A stretch of DNA of 64,000 bases from Patescibacteria group bacterium (GCA_041656935.1 JBBACQ010000001.1:29459-93458); one strand, 5' to 3'; positions 9,552-38,310 are shown, counted from the first letter of the stretch. Numbers and translations: made by a program. Notes: generated by a model from the sequence alone, not told the origin.

Positions 9552-10835
9552 TTAACTCCACTGAGAATCTTGTCGCACTAATAATTCTTCGGCTTGACTC
9601 GAATTATTCATAATTTCTTTTACTAATTTCTCTAAACGCACCCCTTGAGAAGCTTTTAATAAAACAATGTCATTAGAAGAGATTCTGTCTTTAACAAAAT
9701 CTTTAGAGGACGAGACATTAGGAAAGACAAAAATATTATCGGGATTAAATCCTTTTTCTTTGGCTCCTCGGCCAATATCTCTGGCCCGTTCTCCAATTAA
9801 AACTAAGAGATCAGCTTTAATTTCGGCTACTTTTTGACCCACCAATTGATGCCCCTCTTCCGTGTAGTGGCCCAACTCTAACATATCACCTAATATAACT
9901 ATTTTCCTATTTTTGGTAGAAATGTTTTTTAAGGTCTCTAGAGCACTTAAAGCTGATTCCGGCGAAGAATTATAAGTATCATCTATCAAAACACTATTTT
10001 TCAGACCCAATAAGATATTCATCCTACCTGGAAGAGGATATATTTTATTTAAATATCCAGCCATTTCAATAAGGTTCAAGCCCAAATGAAACCCAACAAC
10101 TAAGGCTGCTAAAGATGAATAAATTGAAGAAAAACTAATAGCTCGAGGCAAAATAATAGGCACCACCGATCCTCCATGTTCTAATTTAAAATTAATTCCG
10201 CAAAAACTATCAGACAACAAATCACCTGACAGAGAAAAAGAAATATCTTTAGCTAAAAAATCGGCTCCGTCATTTGTCCCGTAATAAAAAGCCTTACTTT
10301 TCAATTCTGGAGAGGCATCTTTTAAATATTTATTATCAAAGTTTAAAACTGCCAAGCCATCTTTTTTCAAATTTTTAACCAATTTTATTTTTTCTTTTTT
10401 TATCTTTTCTAAACTACCGAAATATTCAACATGAGAATGAGAAATATTGGTGATTACTCCAATATCTGGTTTAACAATAGATAATAAATAATCCATATCA
10501 CCACTACGATCAATCCCCATTTCTAAAACTAGAATTTCGGGATAATTTCTATCCTTAAAAAGTAATAGTCTTTTAGCTTCATAAAAAACCTTCAACCAAC
10601 CCCAAAAATTCTTCCCAGGAGACTCTCGGCCAATAATAGATAAGGGCAAACCAAACTCATTATTATAATTTTTAATACTAGATCTAACCCTAAATCTATT
10701 CGACAAAACTAAGGTAATAAATTCTTTAGTACCAGTTTTACCAACACTACCAGTAATACCTACTATTTTAGGTTTATATTTTTTAATAATGGCTCTAGCA
10801 AAAATAGCCAATATTTTTAAGATTATTTTCTTCAT
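9552..10835 (-). CDS. murF: UDP-N-acetylmuramoyl-tripeptide--D-alanyl-D-alanine ligase
   Basis: Mur ligase P-loop GITGSVGKTGTKE and the MurF-type DDTYNSSPES motif. dcw cluster context. Confidence 0.85.
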   Translation of the reverse strand: MKKIILKILAIFARAIIKKYKPKIVGITGSVGKTGTKEFITLVLSNRFRVRSSIKNYNNEFGLPLSIIGRESPGKNFWGWLKVFYEAKRLLLFKDRNYPEILVLEMGIDRSGDMDYLLSIVKPDIGVITNISHSHVEYFGSLEKIKKEKIKLVKNLKKDGLAVLNFDNKYLKDASPELKSKAFYYGTNDGADFLAKDISFSLSGDLLSDSFCGINFKLEHGGSVVPIILPRAISFSSIYSSLAALVVGFHLGLNLIEMAGYLNKIYPLPGRMNILLGLKNSVLIDDTYNSSPESALSALETLKNISTKNRKIVILGDMLELGHYTEEGHQLVGQKVAEIKADLLVLIGERARDIGRGAKEKGFNPDNIFVFPNVSSSKDFVKDRISSNDIVLLKASQGVRLEKLVKEIMNNSSQAEELLVRQDSQWS

Positions 10836-21200: not shown

Positions 21201-21214
21201 ATAGAAAGGTTAAA

Positions 21215-21786
21215 ATACGACGAACGAGCGTCGCAGTTTTTGACGAAAAAATTTCCTAAAATTTAGATCTCAAGAGTAAAAGCTTAAATTTTGGAGAAAG
21301 TTTGAGGAAAAAACGAGAAGCGAAGTGAGTCGTATTGAAAATACGACGAACGAGCATCGCAGTTTTTGACGAAAAAATTTCCTAAAATTTATTTTAGACC
21401 AAAGAGTAAAAGCTTAAATTTTGGAGAAAGTTTGAGGAAAAAACGAGAAGCGAAGTGAGTCGTATTAAAAATACGACGAACGAGCATCGCAGTTTTTGAC
21501 GAAAAAATTTCCTAAAATTTATTTTAGACCAAAGAGTAAAAGCTTAAATTTTGGAGAAAGTTTGAGGAAAAAACGAGAAGCGAAGTGAGTCGTATTAAAA
21601 ATACGACGAACGAGCATCGCAGTTTTTGACGAAAAAATTTCCCAAAATTTATTTTAGACCAAAGAGTAAAAGCTTAAATTTTGGAGAAAGTTTGAGGAAA
21701 AAACGAGAAGCGAAGTGAGTCGTATTGAAAATACGACGAACGAGCATCGCAGTTTTTGACGAAAAAATTTCCCAAAATTTAAGCTT
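21215..21786. repeat. Tandem repeat array, about 130-bp unit x 4.4 copies
   Basis: Unit starts (ATACGACGAA) lie at 21215, 21341, 21471, 21601 and 21731, giving periods of 126, 130, 130 and 130. Units 2-4 are near-identical. Each junction is the palindrome GTCGTATT-N4-AATACGAC. No ORF is present. Confidence 0.95.
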
Positions 21787-30426: not shown

Positions 30427-31182
30427 TTATTTGGTTGCTTCAATCTTTAAACTTTCAAGGGGAATGCCTTGGTATTGTCTTTTACTGATATCTTTATCTT
30501 CTGACAAAATTTTTATTTTAAATCCAGCATCTTCAATAATTTTTAAATATTCATCTTTTAATAAAGCTCCACCTACACATCCAGCAATTAATTCATCGTT
30601 ACTTTTCTGTTCGTCAGAGATGTCTCCTAGTAAAACAATATCTGAATTATAAATTTTACCACCTTTTTTAAGTACCCGGAATGCTTCTTTGAAGACTTTA
30701 GACTTATCTGGTGCTAGATTAATAACACAGTTACTTATAATCACATCAATAGAATCACTTTCCACGGGTAGTTTTTCTATATCTCCCAATCGAAATTCAA
30801 CATTATTATAATTAAATTTTTCAGCATTTTTCTTTGCTTTAGCAATCATCTCTGGCGTTATATCTATTCCGATTACTCGTCCAAGTTTACCTACTTTTTT
30901 AACAGCAAGAAAACAATCGAAACCAGCTCCTGAGCCTAAATCTAAGACAACATCGCCCTCCTTGATATTTCCCATCCCCGTTGGATTACCACAACCAAGA
31001 CCAAGATTAGATTCGGAAATAGCTTCTATTTCCTGATCAGAATAGCCAATACTTTTGGCAATTTGTTTATTGACATTTTTATCGTTACAACCACAACTAT
31101 TACTACAACATCCAGCACCGTTTTGAGTTGCAATTTTGCTATAATGCTTTTTAACGATTTGTTTAATATTATTTTTTTTCAT
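30427..31182 (-). CDS. arsM: Arsenite S-adenosylmethionine methyltransferase-like (ArsM family)
   Basis: Cys-rich N-terminus (GCCSNSCGC), the LGLGCGNP motif, and the SAM-binding VLDLGSGAGFD. Confidence 0.78.
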   Translation of the reverse strand: MKKNNIKQIVKKHYSKIATQNGAGCCSNSCGCNDKNVNKQIAKSIGYSDQEIEAISESNLGLGCGNPTGMGNIKEGDVVLDLGSGAGFDCFLAVKKVGKLGRVIGIDITPEMIAKAKKNAEKFNYNNVEFRLGDIEKLPVESDSIDVIISNCVINLAPDKSKVFKEAFRVLKKGGKIYNSDIVLLGDISDEQKSNDELIAGCVGGALLKDEYLKIIEDAGFKIKILSEDKDISKRQYQGIPLESLKIEATK

Positions 31183-31195
31183 AAGTTTGTTTGAT

Positions 31196-32143
31196 TTAAA
31201 ATTTTCGTTGTCTGGTTCGGTTTTCTAGATATCTCTCAATGGCTTCTTTGGAGGTTAACCAATCCCGGCCCTCTTTATACGCCTCCAGCTTTCCTTGTCT
31301 GGCAAGTAAATTAAGATATTTGGCAGAAAAAGGAGCGGTTTTAGCTATTTCCGCAAGCCTCAAAAATTTTTCCTGTTTTTGTGTTGACGGAGTTAATGTC
31401 TTTAGATAAATATCCAATGAACGCTCGATGGACTGAGCAATAAATTTTACCAGTGGTTCAAACTTACCCTTATCCGATTTATCCAAAACATCATAATATT
31501 TTTTTCGGTCAGTTTTCATGATCGTGACCAATGGATATCCAGCTTGCATCAAAAATAGATTCATCGTTAAGCGTGCCGTTCTACCATTGCCGTCAAAAAA
31601 CGGATGAATATAGACTAATTTATGATGCAATAAAGCAGAAAGTTCAATAATATTCAGTTTGTTTTTTTGTGAGTTTAACCAAATAATTAATTCTCTCATT
31701 TTATTTGGTACTTGTAGCGCATTTGGTGGAATATGGTCTGCGCCACCAATAATTACATTAGCATTTCTATATCGGCCGGCCCATTCCTTATCCGTTTCCT
31801 GCAAAATAATTTGATGTAAGTTTTTAATAAGCATTTCGGAAACAGTGTGTTTTTTGTCTTTATCTATTAAGTCATACAAATATTCTAGTGCGGCATGGTG
31901 GTCTTTCGCTTCCAAATGGTCTTTCAAAGGCTTACCTTTCACTGTCAGGCCTTCATTAATAACTAAAAAGGTCTCTTTTAAAGTTAAAGAGTTGCCTTCA
32001 ATAGCATTTGAGTTATAGGTCATTTCAATTTGGAATTTTTCTCGAAGTTTTTGCACTGCAGACTTAGGTAAGGGGCGCAGTTTGTTGAGTTTGGACAGTT
32101 TTTCTTCCAAACGATTTTTTACGATTGATGATAAGTAAGTCAT
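31196..32143 (-). CDS. fic: Fic family protein (class II, autoinhibited) with C-terminal HTH-like domain
   Basis: Canonical Fic motif HPFFDGNGRTARL. N-terminal inhibitory motif S-N-A-I-E-G ([S/T]xxxE[G/N]). The C-terminus (AKYLNLLARQGKLEAYKEGRDWL) looks like a DNA-binding fold. Confidence 0.9.
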   Translation of the reverse strand: MTYLSSIVKNRLEEKLSKLNKLRPLPKSAVQKLREKFQIEMTYNSNAIEGNSLTLKETFLVINEGLTVKGKPLKDHLEAKDHHAALEYLYDLIDKDKKHTVSEMLIKNLHQIILQETDKEWAGRYRNANVIIGGADHIPPNALQVPNKMRELIIWLNSQKNKLNIIELSALLHHKLVYIHPFFDGNGRTARLTMNLFLMQAGYPLVTIMKTDRKKYYDVLDKSDKGKFEPLVKFIAQSIERSLDIYLKTLTPSTQKQEKFLRLAEIAKTAPFSAKYLNLLARQGKLEAYKEGRDWLTSKEAIERYLENRTRQRKF

Positions 32144-32176
32144 AAAATGCTTAATATGGTTTAGTTAATTATTTAC

Positions 32177-32204
32177 ATTATACCATATTAAGGAATTTGG
32201 TCAA
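32177..32204 (-). promoter_or_regulatory. Strong sigma70-type promoter for fic
   Basis: Minus strand TTGACC (32204-32199), 16-nt spacer, extended -10 TGgTATAAT (32185-32177), about 30 nt upstream of the fic ATG. Confidence 0.65.
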
Positions 32205-32295
32205 GACTGTATATTCAGCTTAGTTTTTGAATAATTCAATGCTTCAAGCGCCGTTTGATCTCTTGCCAGATTAAACAATTTTTTACTCACGCTCA

Positions 32296-32378
32296 GATCA
32301 ACGTTTGCGTATATCTGATGTGCGAAGCATGTGGGCGGAATGACCGCAGGGAGTGGAGCCAGATATACGCTGTTAGGC
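32296..32378 (-). other. attC-like recombination site C (3' end of cassette C)
   Basis: The minus strand reads GCCTAAC-a-GCGTATATCTGG...loop...CAGATATACGC-aaac-GTTGATC. It begins 10 nt after the stop codon of the 264-aa ORF. Confidence 0.65.
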
Positions 32379-32404
32379 GATGTAAATTTTAGACTTTTTT
32401 AAAT
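32372..32404. repeat. Terminal inverted repeat of cassette C, distal arm
   Basis: GTTAGGCGATGTAAATTTTAGACTTTTTTAAAT matches the reverse complement of 33190-33222 at 31 of 33 positions. It overlaps the last 5 codons and the stop of the ORF. Confidence 0.85.
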
Positions 32405-33183
32405 CTCGCGACAAATTCATCTCTTGTCATCACAACTTGTCTTACTTCCGGCTTCTCTCCCGTTGTTAGATATTTTTCCAGAGATCTCTTGTTGTATTGC
32501 AATGCTAAATGTTGAACGGCGGTAACGTCACTATCTTCAGGTGAAATGTCCTGTATTGAAATTTCATCACCCAATAGCATTCTAGCTTTCGCCTCCATTT
32601 TTTGATTAAGTAACCAAGATTTCATAACAATTTTATCTGCTGTGATTTCACCCGCTTCTAATTTAGCCCCTATGGACTGAAAGCCATCTATGATTTTAGA
32701 AATTAGTTCTGCGCTTTCCACGCCCGTTGGCCTGATGTGTAATGAAATTTCATTATTGTTGTCTTTTTTATATGCGATAACATCATTGACATGCACCATG
32801 CCAGACCCTTCTTCCACCTCATCTCTTTTTCTATTCCATTCAGTGAGTAATAGATTGGCGATCGGTGAAGTAGCTAATCTGTCGGCAAAGCTATCTCTGG
32901 AAAAATTATTTTCTTGACATTCCTGTAAAGAGGAATTAATTATTTGATACAATTCTTGTTTTGCTTTGGACTGTTGAGTTTCTTCGCTGGAGCCACTTAA
33001 TCTAGAAACGTAAAGATCAACCATTCTTTCTGTAATTGCATTCGTATCTTCAGCACCTTCGGTATGGAGTAAATTTTGATATAGTTCAAATCCACCAACA
33101 AATCTAATAAACGCAGGATTTGTTAAGATCATATCCCTTGTTCCTTCTTGATGAATTTGTCGCGATTGTTCACCTTCTATCAT
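32389..33183 (-). CDS. Hypothetical protein (cassette C ORF)
   Basis: 264 aa with no recognisable motif. By eye it is richer in G+C and poorer in Lys/Asn/Ile than its neighbours. Confidence 0.6.
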   Translation of the reverse strand: MIEGEQSRQIHQEGTRDMILTNPAFIRFVGGFELYQNLLHTEGAEDTNAITERMVDLYVSRLSGSSEETQQSKAKQELYQIINSSLQECQENNFSRDSFADRLATSPIANLLLTEWNRKRDEVEEGSGMVHVNDVIAYKKDNNNEISLHIRPTGVESAELISKIIDGFQSIGAKLEAGEITADKIVMKSWLLNQKMEAKARMLLGDEISIQDISPEDSDVTAVQHLALQYNKRSLEKYLTTGEKPEVRQVVMTRDEFVARFKKV

Positions 33184-33189
33184 ATTGGT

Positions 33190-33222
33190 ATTTAAAAAAG
33201 TCTAAAATTTATTTCGCCTAAC
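33190..33222. repeat. Terminal inverted repeat of cassette C, proximal arm
   Basis: ATTTAAAAAAGTCTAAAATTTATTTCGCCTAAC, the partner of 32372-32404. It ends 6 nt upstream of the ORF ATG. Confidence 0.85.
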
Positions 33223-33367
33223 ATCGGGCTTAAGGGAAGTTTGATTTTTTCAGAGCTGGAACGCAGATTTTTTGAGGCAACCCACAAAAAATCAAGTGAC
33301 CTCGAAAAAATCAAATTTGGGTCGGAGAAACCTGCAAGGTTTCGGAGCCCTTTAAGCCCTGTTCTAT
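33216..33367 (-). other. attC-like recombination site B (3' end of cassette B)
   Basis: The minus strand reads ATAGAAC-a-GGGCTTAAAGGG...about 110-nt structured loop...CCCTTAAGCCC-gat-GTTAGGC. There is one extra A in the 5' arm. The loop contains nested TTTGATTTTTTC/GAAAAAATCAAA and GATTTTTTG/CAAAAAATC pairings. Confidence 0.65.
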
Positions 33368-33516
33368 TCGTCCGTTAGGACTTGATTTTTAGTGCAACGA
33401 TGCCGAAGGCAAAAAATCAAAGTAATTTCAGGGGCGTATTCAATCAAGCGAACACAGTGAGCCATCAAGAATAAGTATCAAGGGGCAATTTTCAGTCCGT
33501 CGTAGGGGGAATTCCG
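33361..33516. repeat. Terminal inverted repeat of cassette B, distal arm (with inserted hairpins)
   Basis: Its blocks GTTCTATTC, GTAATTTCAGGGG, GGGGCAATTTTC and GGGGGAATTC are the complement of blocks in 34106-34175, in the same order. Confidence 0.7.
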
Positions 33517-33557
33517 TTTATTTTTTGCTTTTTTTTCTCTAAAAAAGAAGATTTGTT

Positions 33558-34049
33558 TTAAATTTCTATTTGAAATATTGCAATAATTAACATAAGAACA
33601 CATGTCAAGGCAAGCGTATAATAATAAAGCCAAGATTGTTTTTTATTATACAGATAATAAATAATTCCAAGAGTCAACATTGTAATTATTATTCCAGCAA
33701 TCCAAGGTGTTTGATATAAAAATAGACCTATTGTAATGAACAAGGTCATTAATGGAACTGTCATAAAAGTTGACTTGTAAATATCCTTTAATTTTAATCG
33801 AAAGAAAAAATAAGAGATTGCCATAATAATAACAAGAAATGAAATATGTAACAATGGTGGAAGCCAGAATAATTGCGAATCAGGATTAAAAGGCATAAAT
33901 AACCCAATAATCCTTCGAATTGTATTTTGATAAAGAGCATCAAAAAGGAATGTTAGAATTAGCAAAATATATCCGAAAACCGCTATGGCTAAAGCTGATA
34001 AAAAACCTTTAATCAAAGGATTCCTAAAAAAGTGCTTTAATTTTCTCAT
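33558..34049 (-). CDS. Hypothetical polytopic membrane protein (cassette B ORF)
   Basis: 163 aa with 4-5 predicted TM helices. No family recognised. Confidence 0.6.
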   Translation of the reverse strand: MRKLKHFFRNPLIKGFLSALAIAVFGYILLILTFLFDALYQNTIRRIIGLFMPFNPDSQLFWLPPLLHISFLVIIMAISYFFFRLKLKDIYKSTFMTVPLMTLFITIGLFLYQTPWIAGIIITMLTLGIIYYLYNKKQSWLYYYTLALTCVLMLIIAIFQIEI

Positions 34050-34105
34050 ATATTGAATGGTTTAGTATAAATAATTTCCTATCTATATTTTTTATTATAT
34101 TTTGA

Positions 34106-34175
34106 ATTCTCCCCAGTCGTTTTTGTTTTTAGAAAATTGCCCCCGTCGTTAGCCCCTGAAATTATTGAATAGAAC
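34106..34175. repeat. Terminal inverted repeat of cassette B, proximal arm
   Basis: GAATTCTCCCC...GAAAATTGCCCC...CCCCTGAAATTATTGAATAGAAC, the partner of 33361-33516. Confidence 0.7.
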
Positions 34176-34270
34176 GTTTCGGCATATCTGATGTTTGCCG
34201 TAGCGTAGCGGAGGCAAATATGGGTGGAGGCTTTTGTATAAAAGCCGTAACCAGATATGCCGTGTTATGT
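34169..34270 (-). other. attC-like recombination site A (3' end of cassette A)
   Basis: The minus strand reads ACATAAC-ac-GGCATATCTGG...loop with TTTGCC/GGCAAA and GGCTTTT/AAAAGCC sub-hairpins...CAGATATGCC-gaaac-GTTCTAT. Confidence 0.65.
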
Positions 34271-34385
34271 GATGTGCATGTTTTACTTTAATCCCGATAG
34301 CAATCGGGATTGCTCTAAAAAAGAATTTTAATTTTGTTTTTTTGTTTTGAAAAAATGAAAGAGGGGTTAGGGGTGAATTTCATTT
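34262..34385. repeat. Terminal inverted repeat of cassette A, distal arm (about 120 nt)
   Basis: GTTATGTGATGTGCATGTTTTACTTT, then a hairpin, then CTCTAAAAAAGAATTTTAATTTTGTTTTTT and AAAGAGGGGTTAGGGGTG. These match the reverse complement of 37265-37390 block by block. The internal hairpin is replaced by a different hairpin of similar form. Confidence 0.8.
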
Positions 34386-34411
34386 TTTCAAAACTCCTTA
34401 TTTTTTAATGA

Positions 34412-34849
34412 TTATCTATCAGCATCCTTTGCTGCTTTTTCGATCCAGTTTCCCATATTATTATATCCGTCATCATTATTCCATAAATAAAAATCATATC
34501 CGCTTGGGATTCTTCCACATCTTTCAGAAGTATTGCCTTGGAGATCTTTTATTTTGCTTACATCTATTCCTAAAAGTCCATTTCCTATTTCTTTGCTTTT
34601 TTCTATTTCATATTTTACCCACCTGCTGCTACAAGTTTTTTCTCCCACAAGCACAACCGTAACAGATGTTCCTTTTAATTGATTATCAATCCAATTTTTA
34701 ATTGCTTGATCACCTTGTTTTTTTATCTTTTCAAAATCAGCTGCGTCTATAAAGCCCGCAGCTTCTTTTCCTTGTGTTACCCAGCTGTTTCTAACGACCA
34801 TAGCTCGAGAGACATCTTTATATTTGAAACTAAAAAATACTTTTCTCAT
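34412..34849 (-). CDS. TIR-like domain protein (DUF1863 / ThsB-like)
   Basis: 145 aa. The N-terminal KVFFSFKYKDV strand, VVLVGEKTCSSRWVKYEIEKS (SxWVxxEI) and GNGLLGIDVSKIKD match the MTH538/DUF1863 TIR-like pattern as I know it. Confidence 0.78.
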   Translation of the reverse strand: MRKVFFSFKYKDVSRAMVVRNSWVTQGKEAAGFIDAADFEKIKKQGDQAIKNWIDNQLKGTSVTVVLVGEKTCSSRWVKYEIEKSKEIGNGLLGIDVSKIKDLQGNTSERCGRIPSGYDFYLWNNDDGYNNMGNWIEKAAKDADR

Positions 34850-34859
34850 AATTTTAAAT

Positions 34860-35264
34860 TTAATTTATTAAATATATTATAAATAGGGCGGCACTGATTA
34901 AAGGTAAATAAAAAATTAAAAGAGTTGGTGAAAACATAGAGTAGATTTGAGTATTTTTCTTTAATTTTTTATATTCTTCTACATCCATAGAAAAATCTAT
35001 TTCTTCCTCTTTTAGTTTTCTAACATGATTATATAAATCTCTAAACAATCTTTCTTGCGAAAGAAAGTATCCGTCCAAAATCCAAAAAACCAAGGTAATA
35101 ACTATAAGAAAATAAATGACATAATCAGAATTATTTGCCTTTGAAAACAAAGCAAGAAGTGCGCCAATCAAAGTAATAGTCCATCCTCTTAGAAAAAACA
35201 AATTTCCAGCCATTCGGCTAATTATATTTTGTATAAATTCAAGATGTTTGCGTTTATTTTCCAT
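34860..35264 (-). CDS. Small multi-TM protein, candidate membrane effector partner of the TIR-like protein
   Basis: 134 aa. Two adjacent TM helices (WTITLIGALLALF and VIYFLIVITLVFWILDGYF), a charged helix (ERLFRDLYNHVRKLKEEE) and a C-terminal TM. A 10-nt gap separates it from the TIR-like gene. Confidence 0.6.
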   Translation of the reverse strand: MENKRKHLEFIQNIISRMAGNLFFLRGWTITLIGALLALFSKANNSDYVIYFLIVITLVFWILDGYFLSQERLFRDLYNHVRKLKEEEIDFSMDVEEYKKLKKNTQIYSMFSPTLLIFYLPLISAALFIIYLIN

Positions 35265-35267
35265 AGT

Positions 35268-36245
35268 TTATTTTAAATCAGCCATTATTTTTTTTGCTAA
35301 ATGATGAGCAAAATTTACAGCAACAGCATTTCCGATCATTTTATATCCGTCAGCGATATCACGATATTTGAAAATAAAATCATCAGGGAATGTTTGAATC
35401 CTTGCACATTCACGAACAGACAAGCGACGATATAAATGTTCTTTTCCGGGAACAAAAATTCTTTTATTTTGACTGATGAATTTCATTTTCGGAGCTTGCG
35501 GATGAATTGGGGCGTGGCGACCACCAGCTTGAATAGTAAAAGAAGGTTCATCCCATGAGCGGACACGATTTCGTGACATATAAATTGAAGAAAAACCGCC
35601 ATTCATGTATTCGTGATTTGGAATTTTTAACATATCACCATTTGTTTTATTTTTATCTAACGCAGGTTTTGCTAAACGCAAATCATAAATAGCGTCTTTT
35701 AATACGGGTTTATATTTTTGCGGTTCTGGAAATTCAAATTTTTTCTTTAGTTTTTTATTATATCCCACAATAATGACACGCAATCTATCTTCAGGAACAT
35801 CATAATCATTTGCATTCAATAATTTGCAAGAAATATTATATCCAGCATTTTCAAATTCCTTTATTATATTTTCAAAAGCTTCCTTATGTTTTGGATGAAG
35901 GATTCCCGACACATTTTCTGCAAGAAAAAATTTAGGTTGTTTTTCTTTTAACAAACGAATATAATCATAAAATAATTTTCCTCGCTTGTCATTTATCCCA
36001 CGCCCAGCTCCAGCTTCACTCCAACTTTGGCAAGGTGGTCCGCCAATAATTCCGTCAACATCAGGAATTTCAGAAGCGGGAACATCAACAATACTTCTTT
36101 TATCAAGTTTTGTTTTTGGAAAATTATGTTCAAAAGTTTCCCAAATTGTGGGGTCATATTCATTTGCCCAGACGACATGAAAACCAGCTTTTTCAAAGCC
36201 TAGATCAAGTCCTCCTGCACCTGTAAACAATGAAGCTATTTTCAT
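35268..36245 (-). CDS. DNA (cytosine-5)-methyltransferase, M.HaeIII-like (probably GGCC-specific)
   Basis: C5-MTase motifs are FTGAGGLDLGF (I), GGPPCQSWS (IV), ENV (VI) and GNAV (X). The variable region (ALDKNKTNG, PNHEY, MSRNRVR, EHLYRRLSVRECARIQ) is collinear with M.HaeIII as I recall that sequence. Confidence 0.92.
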   Translation of the reverse strand: MKIASLFTGAGGLDLGFEKAGFHVVWANEYDPTIWETFEHNFPKTKLDKRSIVDVPASEIPDVDGIIGGPPCQSWSEAGAGRGINDKRGKLFYDYIRLLKEKQPKFFLAENVSGILHPKHKEAFENIIKEFENAGYNISCKLLNANDYDVPEDRLRVIIVGYNKKLKKKFEFPEPQKYKPVLKDAIYDLRLAKPALDKNKTNGDMLKIPNHEYMNGGFSSIYMSRNRVRSWDEPSFTIQAGGRHAPIHPQAPKMKFISQNKRIFVPGKEHLYRRLSVRECARIQTFPDDFIFKYRDIADGYKMIGNAVAVNFAHHLAKKIMADLK

Positions 36246-36247
36246 AA

Positions 36248-37228
36248 TTATTCGTGACTAATATTTAGTGTATTTTTAAATAATTTTTTCGGCGATTTCA
36301 AAAGGTTTATATCAAATTTCAATGACGATTCAACCCTTGAACTTGCATTATGAATACGAAAAGAAAGAGTCCAATCATTATTCATGGTTACTATCGCAGT
36401 TGTTTGGCTATCGGTTTTGAAACAAATATCAATAATTTCTGTTGGTAGTGGTACTTTGGGGGTTTTATATTTCGGAAGAATGTCGTCAAAAGGCAAATTT
36501 AATGTTCCATTCAAATTGTAGGCGTGTATTTCTACACTATTTTTGCCTTTAATAACTTTGTAAAAATCTTTATTTCCAACGAGGTATGCGACTAAATTGG
36601 ACGCTACTTTTTTAGAATCTTTTTTATATAGATTTTTCAGTTCTTTAATAAAGGCTTTTAAAATTGGAATGTAGATTGATGAATGATAATCACCAAGCTC
36701 ACTCCACTTTTTCTTTGCACCACTTTCTTTTCTAATTTTTTCCAAATTGTTAAAAATAGGTGTAACTGTTTCAAAATATTCTTTTGATGTTTTTATTCCA
36801 AGCCACTTTTCGCCAAAATCAATATTTGAAGATAGTCGGGAATGTTTTACTGCATGATGATTATTTTTTGCAGATACTCCAATTTCCCATTTTTGCAATA
36901 AACGAATTGCTAAAACGTCTCTGACATCGCCTGATTTTCCATGTTGATCTGATAAAATTTCAAGTTGCAGAATATCATCTTTGCCAATATCGTTTGTGAG
37001 GCGTGGCTCTATATCCATTAAAAAATTAACCGCAAAACTAGCGGTGAGCAAATAATCGCTCTTTTCTGTTTCGCTAACATTTTCAAAACAACCTTTTGCA
37101 ATTTCAAAAGAAGAATTTTTGATAACTTCAAGATTTGTTTTGTCTTTCAATTTTTCTTCAAATTGAACAAGCAAAGCATACTCAAAAGATTTTCCAGTTG
37201 TCATTTGTCTTGATGCAGTAGTAGTCAT
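36248..37228 (-). CDS. Putative type II restriction endonuclease cognate to the M.HaeIII-like methylase
   Basis: 326 aa, co-oriented, with a 2-nt gap to the methylase gene. The assignment rests on context and size, and no catalytic motif was identified with confidence. Confidence 0.6.
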   Translation of the reverse strand: MTTTASRQMTTGKSFEYALLVQFEEKLKDKTNLEVIKNSSFEIAKGCFENVSETEKSDYLLTASFAVNFLMDIEPRLTNDIGKDDILQLEILSDQHGKSGDVRDVLAIRLLQKWEIGVSAKNNHHAVKHSRLSSNIDFGEKWLGIKTSKEYFETVTPIFNNLEKIRKESGAKKKWSELGDYHSSIYIPILKAFIKELKNLYKKDSKKVASNLVAYLVGNKDFYKVIKGKNSVEIHAYNLNGTLNLPFDDILPKYKTPKVPLPTEIIDICFKTDSQTTAIVTMNNDWTLSFRIHNASSRVESSLKFDINLLKSPKKLFKNTLNISHE

Positions 37229-37264
37229 ATTTTTATTATTACATTTTTCCCCTTATAAATAAAT

Positions 37265-37390
37265 CGTTTTCGTAGCGGAGCGGAGAAAACACCTTATACC
37301 CCCTTTTAATAAATAAAAAACAAAATTCAAATTCTTTTTTAAAGCTGGGCGATAGCCCAAAAGTAAAACATGCATTTCACATAACTGGTT
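37265..37390. repeat. Terminal inverted repeat of cassette A, proximal arm
   Basis: Partner of 34262-34385. It starts at the attI crossover (ACATAAC, 37379-37385). Confidence 0.8.
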
Positions 37391-37500
37391 ATTATACGAA
37401 CAATACTTAAAAAATACATTAATTTAAGCATTGTTTATTTAAGATATGCTATAATAATCAAAGTTAAAACTATTAATATTTTAATATAATTCAAATAAAT
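37379..37500 (-). other. attI-like region with crossover site GTTATGT
   Basis: Minus-strand GTTATGT (37385-37379) forms the first G|TT junction. A TATAAT (37396-37391, minus) lies 5 nt upstream of it and points into the cassettes. The motif ATTTAAG occurs twice (37422-37428 and 37436-37442). Confidence 0.5.
37447..37455 (+). promoter_or_regulatory. Extended -10 element for the recombinase gene
   Basis: TGcTATAAT lies about 45 nt upstream of the ATG at 37501. No good -35 is present. Confidence 0.4.
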
Positions 37501-38310
37501 ATGCAAACTCAATTAAATCTCCTTGAAAGAGAGTTAAAAATTAGAAATTATAGCCCTAAAACCATTAAGGCCTATCTTTATGGTTTAAAAGAGTATCTAA
37601 TATTTAAAAAGGTAAATTTAGATAATTTTGATGAAAATATCATTAAGAATTTTCTTTTAACTTCTCGAATCAAAGCTTCTCCTCAAAGCCAAAATATATA
37701 TCTCGGAGGGATAAAATTTTATTATTACAATATCATTAAAATTAATAAAAAAATAGACATAAAATCAATCAAAAAGACCAAAAAGCTCCCCGTTGTTCTA
37801 TCTCGCCAAGAAATTAAAGAAATATTAAATTCAATTTCAAATGAAAAACATAAATTATTAATAGCAGTATCTTATGGAGCTGGATTAAGAGTAAGTGAAG
37901 CTATTTCTCTGAAAGTCAAAGATATTGATCTAGAGGAGCTGACTATACACATTAAAAACGCTAAGGGGCAAAAAGATCGCATCAGCGTATTACCAGAAAA
38001 ATTAATAAAAAATTTAGAAAAAATAATTAAATTTAAATCTTTAAATGAATATGTTTTTGAGAGTGAGAGAGGCGGGAAATTAACCTCTCGAACTGCTCAA
38101 AAAATTTTTGAAAATAACTTAAAAAAGGCCAAAATAAAAAAAGACGCCACCTTCCATAGCTTACGTCATAGCTTTGCCACTCATCTATTAGAAAACGGCG
38201 TTGATGTTCGTTATGTTCAAGAATTACTTGGTCACCAAAATATCAGAACAACACAAATTTATACTCAAGTCACTAATCCTAAATTAAAAAACATTAAAAG
38301 CCCCTTATAA
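37501..38310 (+). CDS. IntI-like tyrosine recombinase lacking the integron-integrase-specific insertion
   Basis: 269 aa. Catalytic residues are R (GLRVSE), K (KGQKDR), HxxR (HSLRHSF), H (LLGHQN) and Y (IYTQV). It has a SAM-like N-domain (IRNYSPKTIKAY). The blocks KLPVVLSRQEI...GLRVSEAISLKVKDID...KGQKDRISVLPEKL and the C-terminal ..IKSPL are collinear with IntI1 as recalled. Confidence 0.88.
   Translation: MQTQLNLLERELKIRNYSPKTIKAYLYGLKEYLIFKKVNLDNFDENIIKNFLLTSRIKASPQSQNIYLGGIKFYYYNIIKINKKIDIKSIKKTKKLPVVLSRQEIKEILNSISNEKHKLLIAVSYGAGLRVSEAISLKVKDIDLEELTIHIKNAKGQKDRISVLPEKLIKNLEKIIKFKSLNEYVFESERGGKLTSRTAQKIFENNLKKAKIKKDATFHSLRHSFATHLLENGVDVRYVQELLGHQNIRTTQIYTQVTNPKLKNIKSPL

Follow-up and report, generated by a model that had tools for sequence, protein, structure and literature searches.

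Four genes lie close together between positions 34175 and 37384 of a 64-kb stretch of DNA from a Patescibacteria group bacterium (JBBACQ010000001.1:29459-93458). This whole stretch is called the window here, and all coordinates without a prefix refer to it. The Patescibacteria, for which candidate phyla radiation (CPR) is another name, are ultra-small bacteria. The genes encode a restriction endonuclease (REase), a DNA methyltransferase (MTase), a small membrane protein, and a TIR protein (Table 1). All four are co-oriented on the minus strand, span 34412-37228, and are tightly packed as described in the initial annotation, since the coordinates of the open reading frames (ORFs) give intergenic gaps of exactly 2, 3, and 10 nt. 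A tyrosine recombinase gene is divergent from them, and the block occupies the first of three cassette positions beside it. It appears that the block is a single mobile cassette of an integron-type platform on the Patescibacteria chromosome and that it carries a two-layer anti-phage operon. A probability of about 0.78 is given to this reading. Related contigs and loci that were compared have L numbers and related proteins have P numbers.

Table 1. Features of the recombinase-linked array in the window.
Feature	Coordinates	Strand	Basis or detail
IntI-like tyrosine recombinase of 269 aa that lacks the IntI-specific additional domain	37501-38310	+	Phage_integrase (1.1e-43) and SAM_4
attI region	37385-37500	-	Crossover G at 37385, with TTCGTATAATAACCA before it on the - strand; direct sequence reading
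Cassette 1, 5' leader	37229-37384	-	Begins TTATGTGAAATGCATGTTTTACTTT; GGGCTATCGCCC hairpin and conserved GTTTTC-TCCGCTCCGCTAC-GAAAAC hairpin
REase, HaeIII family, type II, 326 aa, predicted target GGCC	36248-37228	-	Pfam RE_HaeIII
C5 cytosine DNA methyltransferase, M.HaeIII-like, 325 aa	35268-36245	-	PDB 1DCT match
Membrane protein, 134 aa, four predicted helices, putative effector of the TIR pair	34860-35264	-	PADLOC PDC-M50A
ThsB-type TIR protein, 145 aa	34412-34849	-	Pfam ThsB_TIR, PADLOC PDC-M50B
Cassette 1, 3' trailer	34271-34411	-	AT-rich 17-bp hairpin 34344-34394, GC hairpin 34290-34311, then ...AAAGTAAAACATGCACATCACATAAC; mirrors the 5' leader
attC-A	34169-34270	-	R'' ACATAAC (34270->34264); stem L''/L' ACGGCATATCTGGT / ATCAGATATGCCGA; two inner hairpins; R' GTTCTAT (34175->34169)
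Cassette 2	33222-34174	-	163-aa multi-pass membrane protein ORF 33558-34049 and attC-B 33216-33367
Cassette 3	32302-33221	-	264-aa protein ORF 32389-33183 and attC-C 32296-32378; array end GTTGATC

The first two genes form a restriction-modification (R-M) pair. The REase matches Pfam RE_HaeIII over 296 of the 298 profile positions (E = 7.1e-97) and PADLOC REase_II at 2.8e-100. No relative of it was found among PDB sequences. The MTase has a C5 DNA_methylase domain (E = 2e-98). Its best solved relative is M.HaeIII (PDB 1DCT; E = 4.5e-128, residues 1-322), to which it is 59% identical over 321 aa, and the next best is M.HhaI (6e-36). There are only two gaps over the 321 residues; thus, the variable target-recognition region is collinear with that of M.HaeIII. 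This collinearity and a nuclease identity for the upstream ORF had both been proposed in the initial annotation, and both hold. GGCC is strongly predicted to be the target of the pair. The resemblance to the HaeIII R-M system (M.HaeIII, PDB 1DCT/3UBT; RE_HaeIII) includes the REase family and the MTase with its target-recognition region. The pair is unlike that system in being present in a CPR genome, inside a cassette, with genes for a membrane protein and a TIR protein next in the same operon. In the sister locus L029, a similar MTase is found with an NgoPII-family REase instead.

The other two genes had been reported to encode a 134-aa protein with multiple transmembrane helices and a 145-aa TIR-like protein, and profile searches agree. 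The TIR protein matches Pfam ThsB_TIR (1.5e-23) and the PADLOC models ThsB1 (3.7e-56) and PDC-M50B (2.7e-47). Its alignment with Bacillus cereus ThsB (6LHY/9B7D; E = 3e-28) covers 134 residues. In the RWVxYE motif, the glutamate that we take to be catalytic in B. cereus ThsB is retained as E81. The membrane protein matches PADLOC PDC-M50A (8e-47). The two genes are adjacent and co-oriented with a gap of 10 nt, which is the arrangement in the PADLOC definition of PDC-M50. That definition includes neither R-M linkage nor an integron context, and PDC-M50 is itself only a candidate system. It was not found in any paper in a literature search of incomplete coverage, in which 8xMP gave unrelated matches only.

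The membrane protein reached the threshold of no Pfam family; the best match was 8xMP at 5e-4, below the cut-off. The Pfam scan found neither a SLOG nor a Macro domain in it. It belongs to a large family (4,438 clusters at 50% identity) in which the basic N-terminus (MENKRKHLEFIQ) hardly varies and an FWxLDGYFLSQER motif is conserved. Across 52 homologues, the residues F23, G27, W28, F60, W61, D64, E71, R72, V81, and S112 are invariant. The same 52 homologues gave a sub-threshold scatter of Pfam families (DUF3278, Ac76, 8xMP, DUF3784, and DUF2270), and none was assigned; DUF2270 was matched by two of them with E of about 0.004. Two fusions are present in the family. One, P0297 (378 aa), joins the membrane domain to a nucleotide-sensor domain of SLOG cluster 2, and the other, P0293 (351 aa), has it behind a bona fide 8xMP domain.

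The pair can be compared with Thoeris systems (type I ThsB; the membrane-effector types II TM-Macro, V ThsF/DUF2270, and VII SLATT). The likeness consists of a ThsB-type TIR protein with the conserved glutamate, of one or two variable TIR genes beside one conserved small effector of three to four helices with conserved basic cytosolic residues, and of a homologous effector domain fused to SLOG in another protein. Among loci, the TIR partner is swapped (145, 162, 167, 193, or 123 aa) and is present once or twice; the membrane protein in the Patescibacteria-type loci, by contrast, remains mostly 61-92% identical. By analogy, this is the sensor-variable, effector-constant pattern of Thoeris. Type V Thoeris has a three-transmembrane effector (DUF2270) that is activated by 3' cyclic ADP-ribose (3'cADPR; bioRxiv 10.64898/2025.12.03.692087). 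The putative effector here differs, as it is by sequence not SIR2-SLOG, Macro-TM, DUF2270, or SLATT, and has only a weak link to 8xMP. No Pfam domain of any described adjacent Thoeris effector (SIR2-SLOG, Macro-TM, caspase-like, DUF2270, DUF6650, SLATT, and others) was found. A further difference is that the pair is attached to R-M operons in Patescibacteria, which is not mentioned in the Thoeris paper (bioRxiv 10.64898/2025.12.03.692087).

The extent of the cassette was determined from its recombination sites. A purpose-written scan of the whole window looked for AAC...GTT pairs 45-190 nt apart with a 10-bp stem beside each box. Exactly three attC-like sites were found in the 64 kb, and all three are in the array (attC-A, attC-B, and attC-C in Table 1). 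When the mononucleotides of the window were shuffled ten times, each shuffle had 0-2 sites (mean 0.3). None of the sites is inside 34271-37384, and an attC between the genes is not possible because the gaps of 2-10 nt are too short. The absence of such a site between the R-M and the membrane/TIR genes had been proposed at the outset. On the cassette strand, the sites have the layout R'' (RYYYAAC), 0-1 nt, L'', a variable centre, L', 2-4 nt, and R' (GTTRRRY), and those in the window are 83-152 nt long. Covariation is seen in the L''/L' stems: when 10 sites of six loci are compared, the sequences differ and 10-13 pairs stay complementary. When folded as single-stranded DNA, attC-A forms a hairpin of -19 kcal/mol (z = -5.2 relative to shuffles). 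The corresponding z is -4.5 for attC-B and -2.6 for attC-C, in which the expected stem is not the minimum-energy fold.

The ends of each cassette match one another. Cassette 1 begins with GTTATGT, cassette 2 with GTTCTAT, and cassette 3 with GTTAGGC, and the R'' boxes of the same cassettes (ACATAAC, ATAGAAC, and GCCTAAC) are the exact complements. For cassette 2, an earlier placement of R'' as GTCCTAAC at 33373-33379 was superseded by ATAGAAC at 33361-33367 from the site scan. In all three window cassettes, R'' pairs with the start of its own cassette and not with the following R', and the same own-end complementarity was found in L001 for three of the four cassettes with a 3' attC read. Circular cassettes that enter singly by a G|TT crossover leave this footprint, which defines cassette 1 as 37384-34175. 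GTTATGT at 37385->37379 adjoins the recombinase gene, with the boundary at attI G37385|T37384, and the crossover at attC-A falls within GTT. The end coordinates in the initial annotation, 34175 and 37384, are thus the cassette boundaries of integron convention (GTTATGT at attI and GTTCTAT as R' of attC-A).

The complementarity extends further. Over about 130 nt, one end of cassette 1 is an inverted repeat of the other (34265-34411 and 37229-37385; repeat I2, 86% complementary), and cassette 3 has a terminal inverted repeat of 37 nt (I3, 92% complementary). The 3' trailer of cassette 1 has a DNA fold with z = -6.1. The leader of cassette 1 is 79-88% identical to the starts of cassettes with unrelated cargo in L001 (two cassettes), L030, L031, and L074. 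The shared leader is located at 37229-37384 in the window, and at L001:7803-7955 and 9690-9800, L030:212-347, L031:3666-3800, and L074:915-1024. Within it are the GGGCTATCGCCC hairpin and a motif, AGAGGGG.AATAAGGTGTTTTC-TCCGCTCCGCTAC-GAAAACGATTTAT, and a mirror-image trailer follows the last gene. The complementary ends, the long inverted repeats, and the recurrence in L001 independently support the four-gene block as one cassette, as first proposed. Its description as unusually large was overstated, as cassettes of about 3 kb with three genes including a DNA methyltransferase are also first in position in L080 and L083. 'Empty' mini-cassettes with little beyond an attC-like palindrome were also seen (L001:9450-9628, L083:3440-3560, and L082:9700-9860). 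In L082 and L083, such a mini-element separates attI from the first coding cassette and is not the same in the two strains.

The block is also present in a different array. Positions 34173-37090 (2.9 kb, from REase codon 46 to attC-A) are identical at every nucleotide to L001 7803-4886. In L001 and L002, the MTase, membrane-protein, and TIR genes and 281 of the 326 REase codons are carried together at 100% identity. L001 is 11.7 kb long, and the block is second in its array, after a glyoxalase cassette. Its integrase gene is 68% identical to that of the window at the nucleotide level and is flanked by ATP synthase genes, a different neighbourhood. The two sequences diverge right after the GTT of attC-A (34173). 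For this boundary, only L001 and L002 count as independent evidence, as the contigs of L003 and L006 end there. The cassette has thus been transferred between arrays, and the search for homologous blocks suggested in the initial annotation yielded a near-whole copy. Among the contigs examined, the exact TIR protein was found on nine others. HaeIII-type R-M genes with the membrane protein were found behind the same 5' leader in L030 and L031; L031 also has a different TIR gene, and its flanking attC sites are decayed.

The other end of the L001 copy is altered. In L001:4700-4960, the attC of the glyoxalase cassette (...CCCCGAT|GTTTTGA) is joined to the GTT in REase codon 46 (window 37090). The REase is truncated at its 5' end to 256 aa, and the methylase, membrane protein, and TIR protein are intact at 100% identity. 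This looks like a secondary-site recombination that disabled the REase and kept the other three genes. In L008, from another sample, the 5' end of the REase gene is intact. A possibly similar secondary-site event was seen in L072:889-1130 and L074:2929-3170, where the membrane-protein gene is cut after codon 61 and followed by sequence that resembles window 34156-34223 (the 3' half of attC-A and the start of cassette 2).

The association of the membrane/TIR pair with R-M genes is not limited to this cassette. About 1,950 close homologues of the membrane protein were found. The best 120 are 80-100% identical, and those among them with a named source are all from Patescibacteria or unclassified metagenome-assembled genomes. 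On all other long contigs examined, the membrane/TIR genes are immediately behind a type II R-M system, and its kind varies. HaeIII and C5 MTase genes precede them in L009-11; TaqI, a LexA-S24-MTase fusion, and a small GIY-YIG gene precede them in L012-15; and MvaI/BcnI with the same accessory genes precedes them in L016-18. A survey of 61 species-level genomic loci included 38 of Patescibacteria type with upstream sequence. For about 30 of these, the region within about 1.5 kb upstream of the pair has either a gene for a DNA methyltransferase or an entire R-M system, and the MTase stop codon often overlaps the start of the membrane-protein gene. The REases beside the pair belong to the HaeIII, NgoPII, TaqI, MvaI/BcnI, TdeIII, EcoRV, AlwI, MamI, Eco57I-type, MutH-like, and HNH families. 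In the exceptions, about eight Patescibacteria loci, the pair adjoins other defence-type or unrelated genes. The initial annotation had regarded the cassette as a stack of two unrelated modules. This view is not upheld, as the pairing recurs with at least 10 REase families. The picture that these sequences suggest is of a Patescibacteria-wide composite that now and then has been packaged into an integron cassette, the present one included.

Outside Patescibacteria (in Bacteroidota and others), the layout is a membrane-protein gene between two TIR genes, with no R-M genes. In the Bacteroidota loci L069, L059, and L056/L057, the flanking TIR genes encode 188 aa and 193 aa. In L069 (7279-9660) and L059, the trio is between classical attC-like sites. 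The L069 trio is integron cargo too, as it lies between regularly spaced attC-like sites.

Several other genes were noted at these loci. N4/N6 MTases fused to LexA DNA-binding and peptidase S24 domains are present in L012:6068-7600, L016:5736-7601, L046:1836-3392, and others, and belong to the TaqI-, MvaI-, and MamI-type R-M systems beside the pair. A conserved 98-aa GIY-YIG-like gene lies between the fused MTase and the membrane-protein gene in L012, L016, L022, L027, and L050. About 2 kb from the pair in L012 (11015-12424; also in L013 and L015), a reverse transcriptase gene (RVT_1) is found with a bAvd-like accessory gene, which suggests a diversity-generating retroelement.

A mechanism can be proposed for the cassette. 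The IntI-like recombinase would insert and excise cassettes by recombining attI with a hairpin-forming attC, presumably as a single strand, at the conserved G|TT. The genes may be expressed from a promoter near attI. In the first layer, the MTase would protect host GGCC sites as GG(m5C)C and the REase would cut incoming unmethylated DNA. In the second layer, the ThsB-type TIR protein may respond to infection by turning NAD+ into a signal of the cyclic-ADP-ribose type. By analogy with Thoeris, the small membrane protein could oligomerise on this signal and breach the membrane, which would result in abortive infection. In Patescibacteria, the membrane/TIR pair habitually follows R-M genes at the 3' end of their operons, and here the whole composite would have been captured as one cassette.

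It is possible, although doubtful, that the second layer is not independent. The membrane/TIR pair would then be a guard wired to the R-M system, and the platform would be a distinct, phylum-wide integron lineage that has no additional domain in its integrase. The TIR protein would sense that the neighbouring R-M system has failed or is inhibited, or would sense DNA ends produced by this system, and would trigger membrane-disrupting abortive infection. This would explain why the pair is fused 3' of at least 10 unrelated R-M families.

The platform was compared with chromosomal integrons (IntI, attI, and attC). The best solved relative of the recombinase is VchIntIA/IntI4 (2A3V; 2.5e-40), and its sequence shows the R, HxxR, H, and Y motifs. 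The recombinase has more than 6,800 homologues. The best 120 are 266-319 aa long (mostly 269-272) and mostly 66-86% identical to the query, and those with a named source are mostly from several classes of Patescibacteria. A TATAAT-containing motif at attI, TTCGTATAA, recurs at the same position in L001 and L082/L083; attI has a conserved TTCGTATAAT motif. The region probably acts as attI and/or as the cassette promoter (Pc). Four further contexts are arranged alike: on the side divergent from the recombinase, the first gene or genes are followed by an attC-like site with the geometry seen here. In 80 metagenomic loci, 64 attC-like sites were found in 201.6 kb upstream of the recombinase and six in 238 kb downstream, an enrichment of about 13-fold. 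Sites were present upstream in 31 of the 41 loci with at least 1 kb of upstream sequence, and downstream in six of 54. The arrays are short, with 1-5 sites seen.

The cargo of these arrays varies. L082 and L083 have identical integrase genes and right flanks and different left-hand cargo, which is an 87-aa ORF in L082 and a 256-aa protein, an N4/N6 MTase, and a DUF2130 protein in L083. In L080, RE_ApaLI, an MTase, and a trypsin-like gene form one cassette of about 3 kb. R-M genes as the typical cargo were considered and rejected, as an MTase match was found in only one of 31 metagenomic arrays (one reference set). Many metagenomic contigs (L086-L165) end 100-250 nt upstream of the integrase start, which would be expected if strain-variable cassettes break assemblies.

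Chromosomal integrons and this platform share a divergent tyrosine recombinase with attI beside it, co-oriented cassettes that end in imperfect RYYYAAC/GTTRRRY palindromes with crossover at G|TT, cassette exchange between arrays, secondary-site events, and defence cargo. The differences are the Patescibacteria host, the short arrays, the inverted repeats of about 130-150 nt at the cassette ends, which are well beyond a canonical attC, and the recombinase itself. It aligns with IntI4 in two pieces (query 7-177 and 196-269 with IntI4 7-182 and 244-317). Between the pieces, query 177-196 faces IntI4 182-244, and the recombinase is thus about 43 aa short at the place of the IntI-specific additional domain. 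This domain is located around patch III (Messier and Roy, 2001, as cited in PMC9668308). The name integron, which was implied in the initial annotation, is supported by the architecture and the att sites and needs a qualification for the missing domain. The platform is of integron type by every architectural test and lacks one protein-level feature that is regarded as defining (PMC9668308).

A number of observations weigh against the reading of a mobile integron-type cassette with a two-layer anti-phage operon. The additional domain that the recombinase lacks is treated as defining and necessary for integron integrases (PMC9668308). The recombinase scores as high against archaeal XerA as against IntI: in NCBIfam, XerA_Arch gives 215 bits (cut-off 220) and integrase_gron 213 bits (cut-off 265), both below the cut-off. 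The strains of L082 and L083 part from each other at a point that does not have the form of a simple G|TT junction. The promoter and terminator scan gave counts at chance level, with no promoter above chance. The membrane protein matches no characterised Thoeris effector and has no PDB relative by sequence (no match in a profile search) or by fold (best Foldseek E = 2.6), and its AlphaFold2 model is of low confidence (pLDDT 66, pTM 0.43). Under-representation of GGCC, suggested in the initial annotation as a check, was not found in the host window, which has 115 GGCC sites for 125 expected from a second-order Markov model of the 64 kb (ratio 0.92). Long-term residence of an active GGCC endonuclease is thus not evidenced. 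The cassettes and attI differ from the rest of the window in this respect, which counts in favour of the reading. The 4.8 kb of 32730-37568 contain no GGCC for about 8.7 expected (Poisson P of about 2e-4), and elsewhere in the window, there is one per about 520 nt. The absence of GGCC from the cassettes, together with the 100% identity to L001, fits a recently acquired, GGCC-avoiding element in a host that is not adapted to it.

The properties of the recombinase raise the question of whether it is a housekeeping Xer-type enzyme. The cassettes would then be modules that exploit Xer, like integrative mobile elements exploiting Xer (IMEX) or pdif modules, or parts of a generic island, and the palindromes would be terminators or repetitive extragenic palindromic (REP)-like elements. 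The missing domain, the equal XerA_Arch score, and the unclean L082/L083 divergence are consistent with this. The recombinase family is also very large and core-gene-like, being 66-86% identical across CPR classes, and its gene is located among core genes in conserved positions. The sites argue otherwise. They are structured hairpins of 80-150 nt with the attC layout, asymmetric spacers (0-1 and 2-4 nt), and covarying stems, unlike dif cores of 28-31 bp. Their enrichment on the divergent side only, the own-end complementarity of each cassette, the same cassette at different array positions, and the secondary-site junction at GTT in L001 are also evidence for an integron. In addition, nearly all genes across the 64 kb are on one strand and the cumulative GC skew is monotonic. 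With no switch of strand or skew, the window is not a replication terminus, the expected place for dif. It is unlikely that housekeeping Xer/dif activity explains this array, and the recombinase may have a dual role, housekeeping and integron.

It is very improbable that the R-M pair and the membrane/TIR pair are separate cassettes or independently acquired neighbours that abut. The membrane/TIR genes do occur without R-M genes in Bacteroidota, other phyla, and about eight Patescibacteria loci, and PADLOC models PDC-M50 as a self-contained candidate of two genes. Nevertheless, only 3 nt separate the MTase stop from the membrane-protein start, the block has no internal site, its outer ends pair with each other, and its genes are found together in L001/L002. 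Blocks of HaeIII-type R-M and membrane-protein genes, some with a TIR gene, are also present in L009/L021, L030, and L031. More improbable still is an invertible segment or a non-autonomous transposon set by the terminal inverted repeats of about 130 nt; such long repeats beside a tyrosine recombinase would suit it, but the inverted orientation is present in none of the contigs compared, neither target-site duplications nor a transposase were found, and the same leader and trailer flank cassettes with unrelated cargo, which fits an extended attC palindrome split by insertion.

Other features were found in and around the array. Family searches (Pfam, PADLOC, and NCBIfam) with the 163-aa ORF of cassette 2 gave no match. 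Just past the array end, a Fic/DOC protein with a C-terminal helix-turn-helix is encoded at 31196-32143 (PADLOC SoFic 9e-38). A gene for an S-adenosylmethionine-dependent methyltransferase (30427-31182) is 13 nt downstream of it, and no attC-like site follows the two genes. A tandem repeat of 130 nt at 21212-21781 (4.4 copies, 97% matches) has internal inverted repeats and is located between genes for threonyl-tRNA synthetase and an NAD-dependent epimerase. An Rfam search of 32000-37600 gave no match near threshold, and no tRNA was found in the window.

Defence genes in integron cassettes, HaeIII-type R-M systems, and TIR/Thoeris systems are all kinds of element that are already known. Vibrio integrons carry anti-phage cassettes, and enrichment of R-M systems in integrons has been reported (bioRxiv 10.1101/2024.07.02.601686). 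The Vibrio cassettes are streamlined small systems, in contrast to the four-gene, 3.2-kb operon found here. No paper on integrons in Patescibacteria/CPR was found in a literature search that was incomplete and is no proof of absence. As far as the search went, three things appear to be undescribed: a Patescibacteria integron lineage whose integrase has no additional domain, extended cassette-terminal repeats with a leader common to cassettes of unrelated cargo, and the systematic attachment of PDC-M50 to R-M operons.

If the reading is true, integron-type capture would operate across Patescibacteria without a domain thought to be necessary for attC recombination, which would widen the search space for integrons. 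Detectors that require the additional domain would presumably report such arrays as attC clusters without an integrase. The lineage would also be a natural test of the purpose of this domain. The cassette would be a clear natural case of a complete multi-gene defence operon that moves between divergent platforms, and its L001 variant would show how a cassette inserted at a secondary site knocked out the endonuclease and spared the methylase, the membrane protein, and the TIR protein. Finally, a Thoeris-like pair on many R-M systems in one phylum would point to a coupling of restriction and abortive infection.

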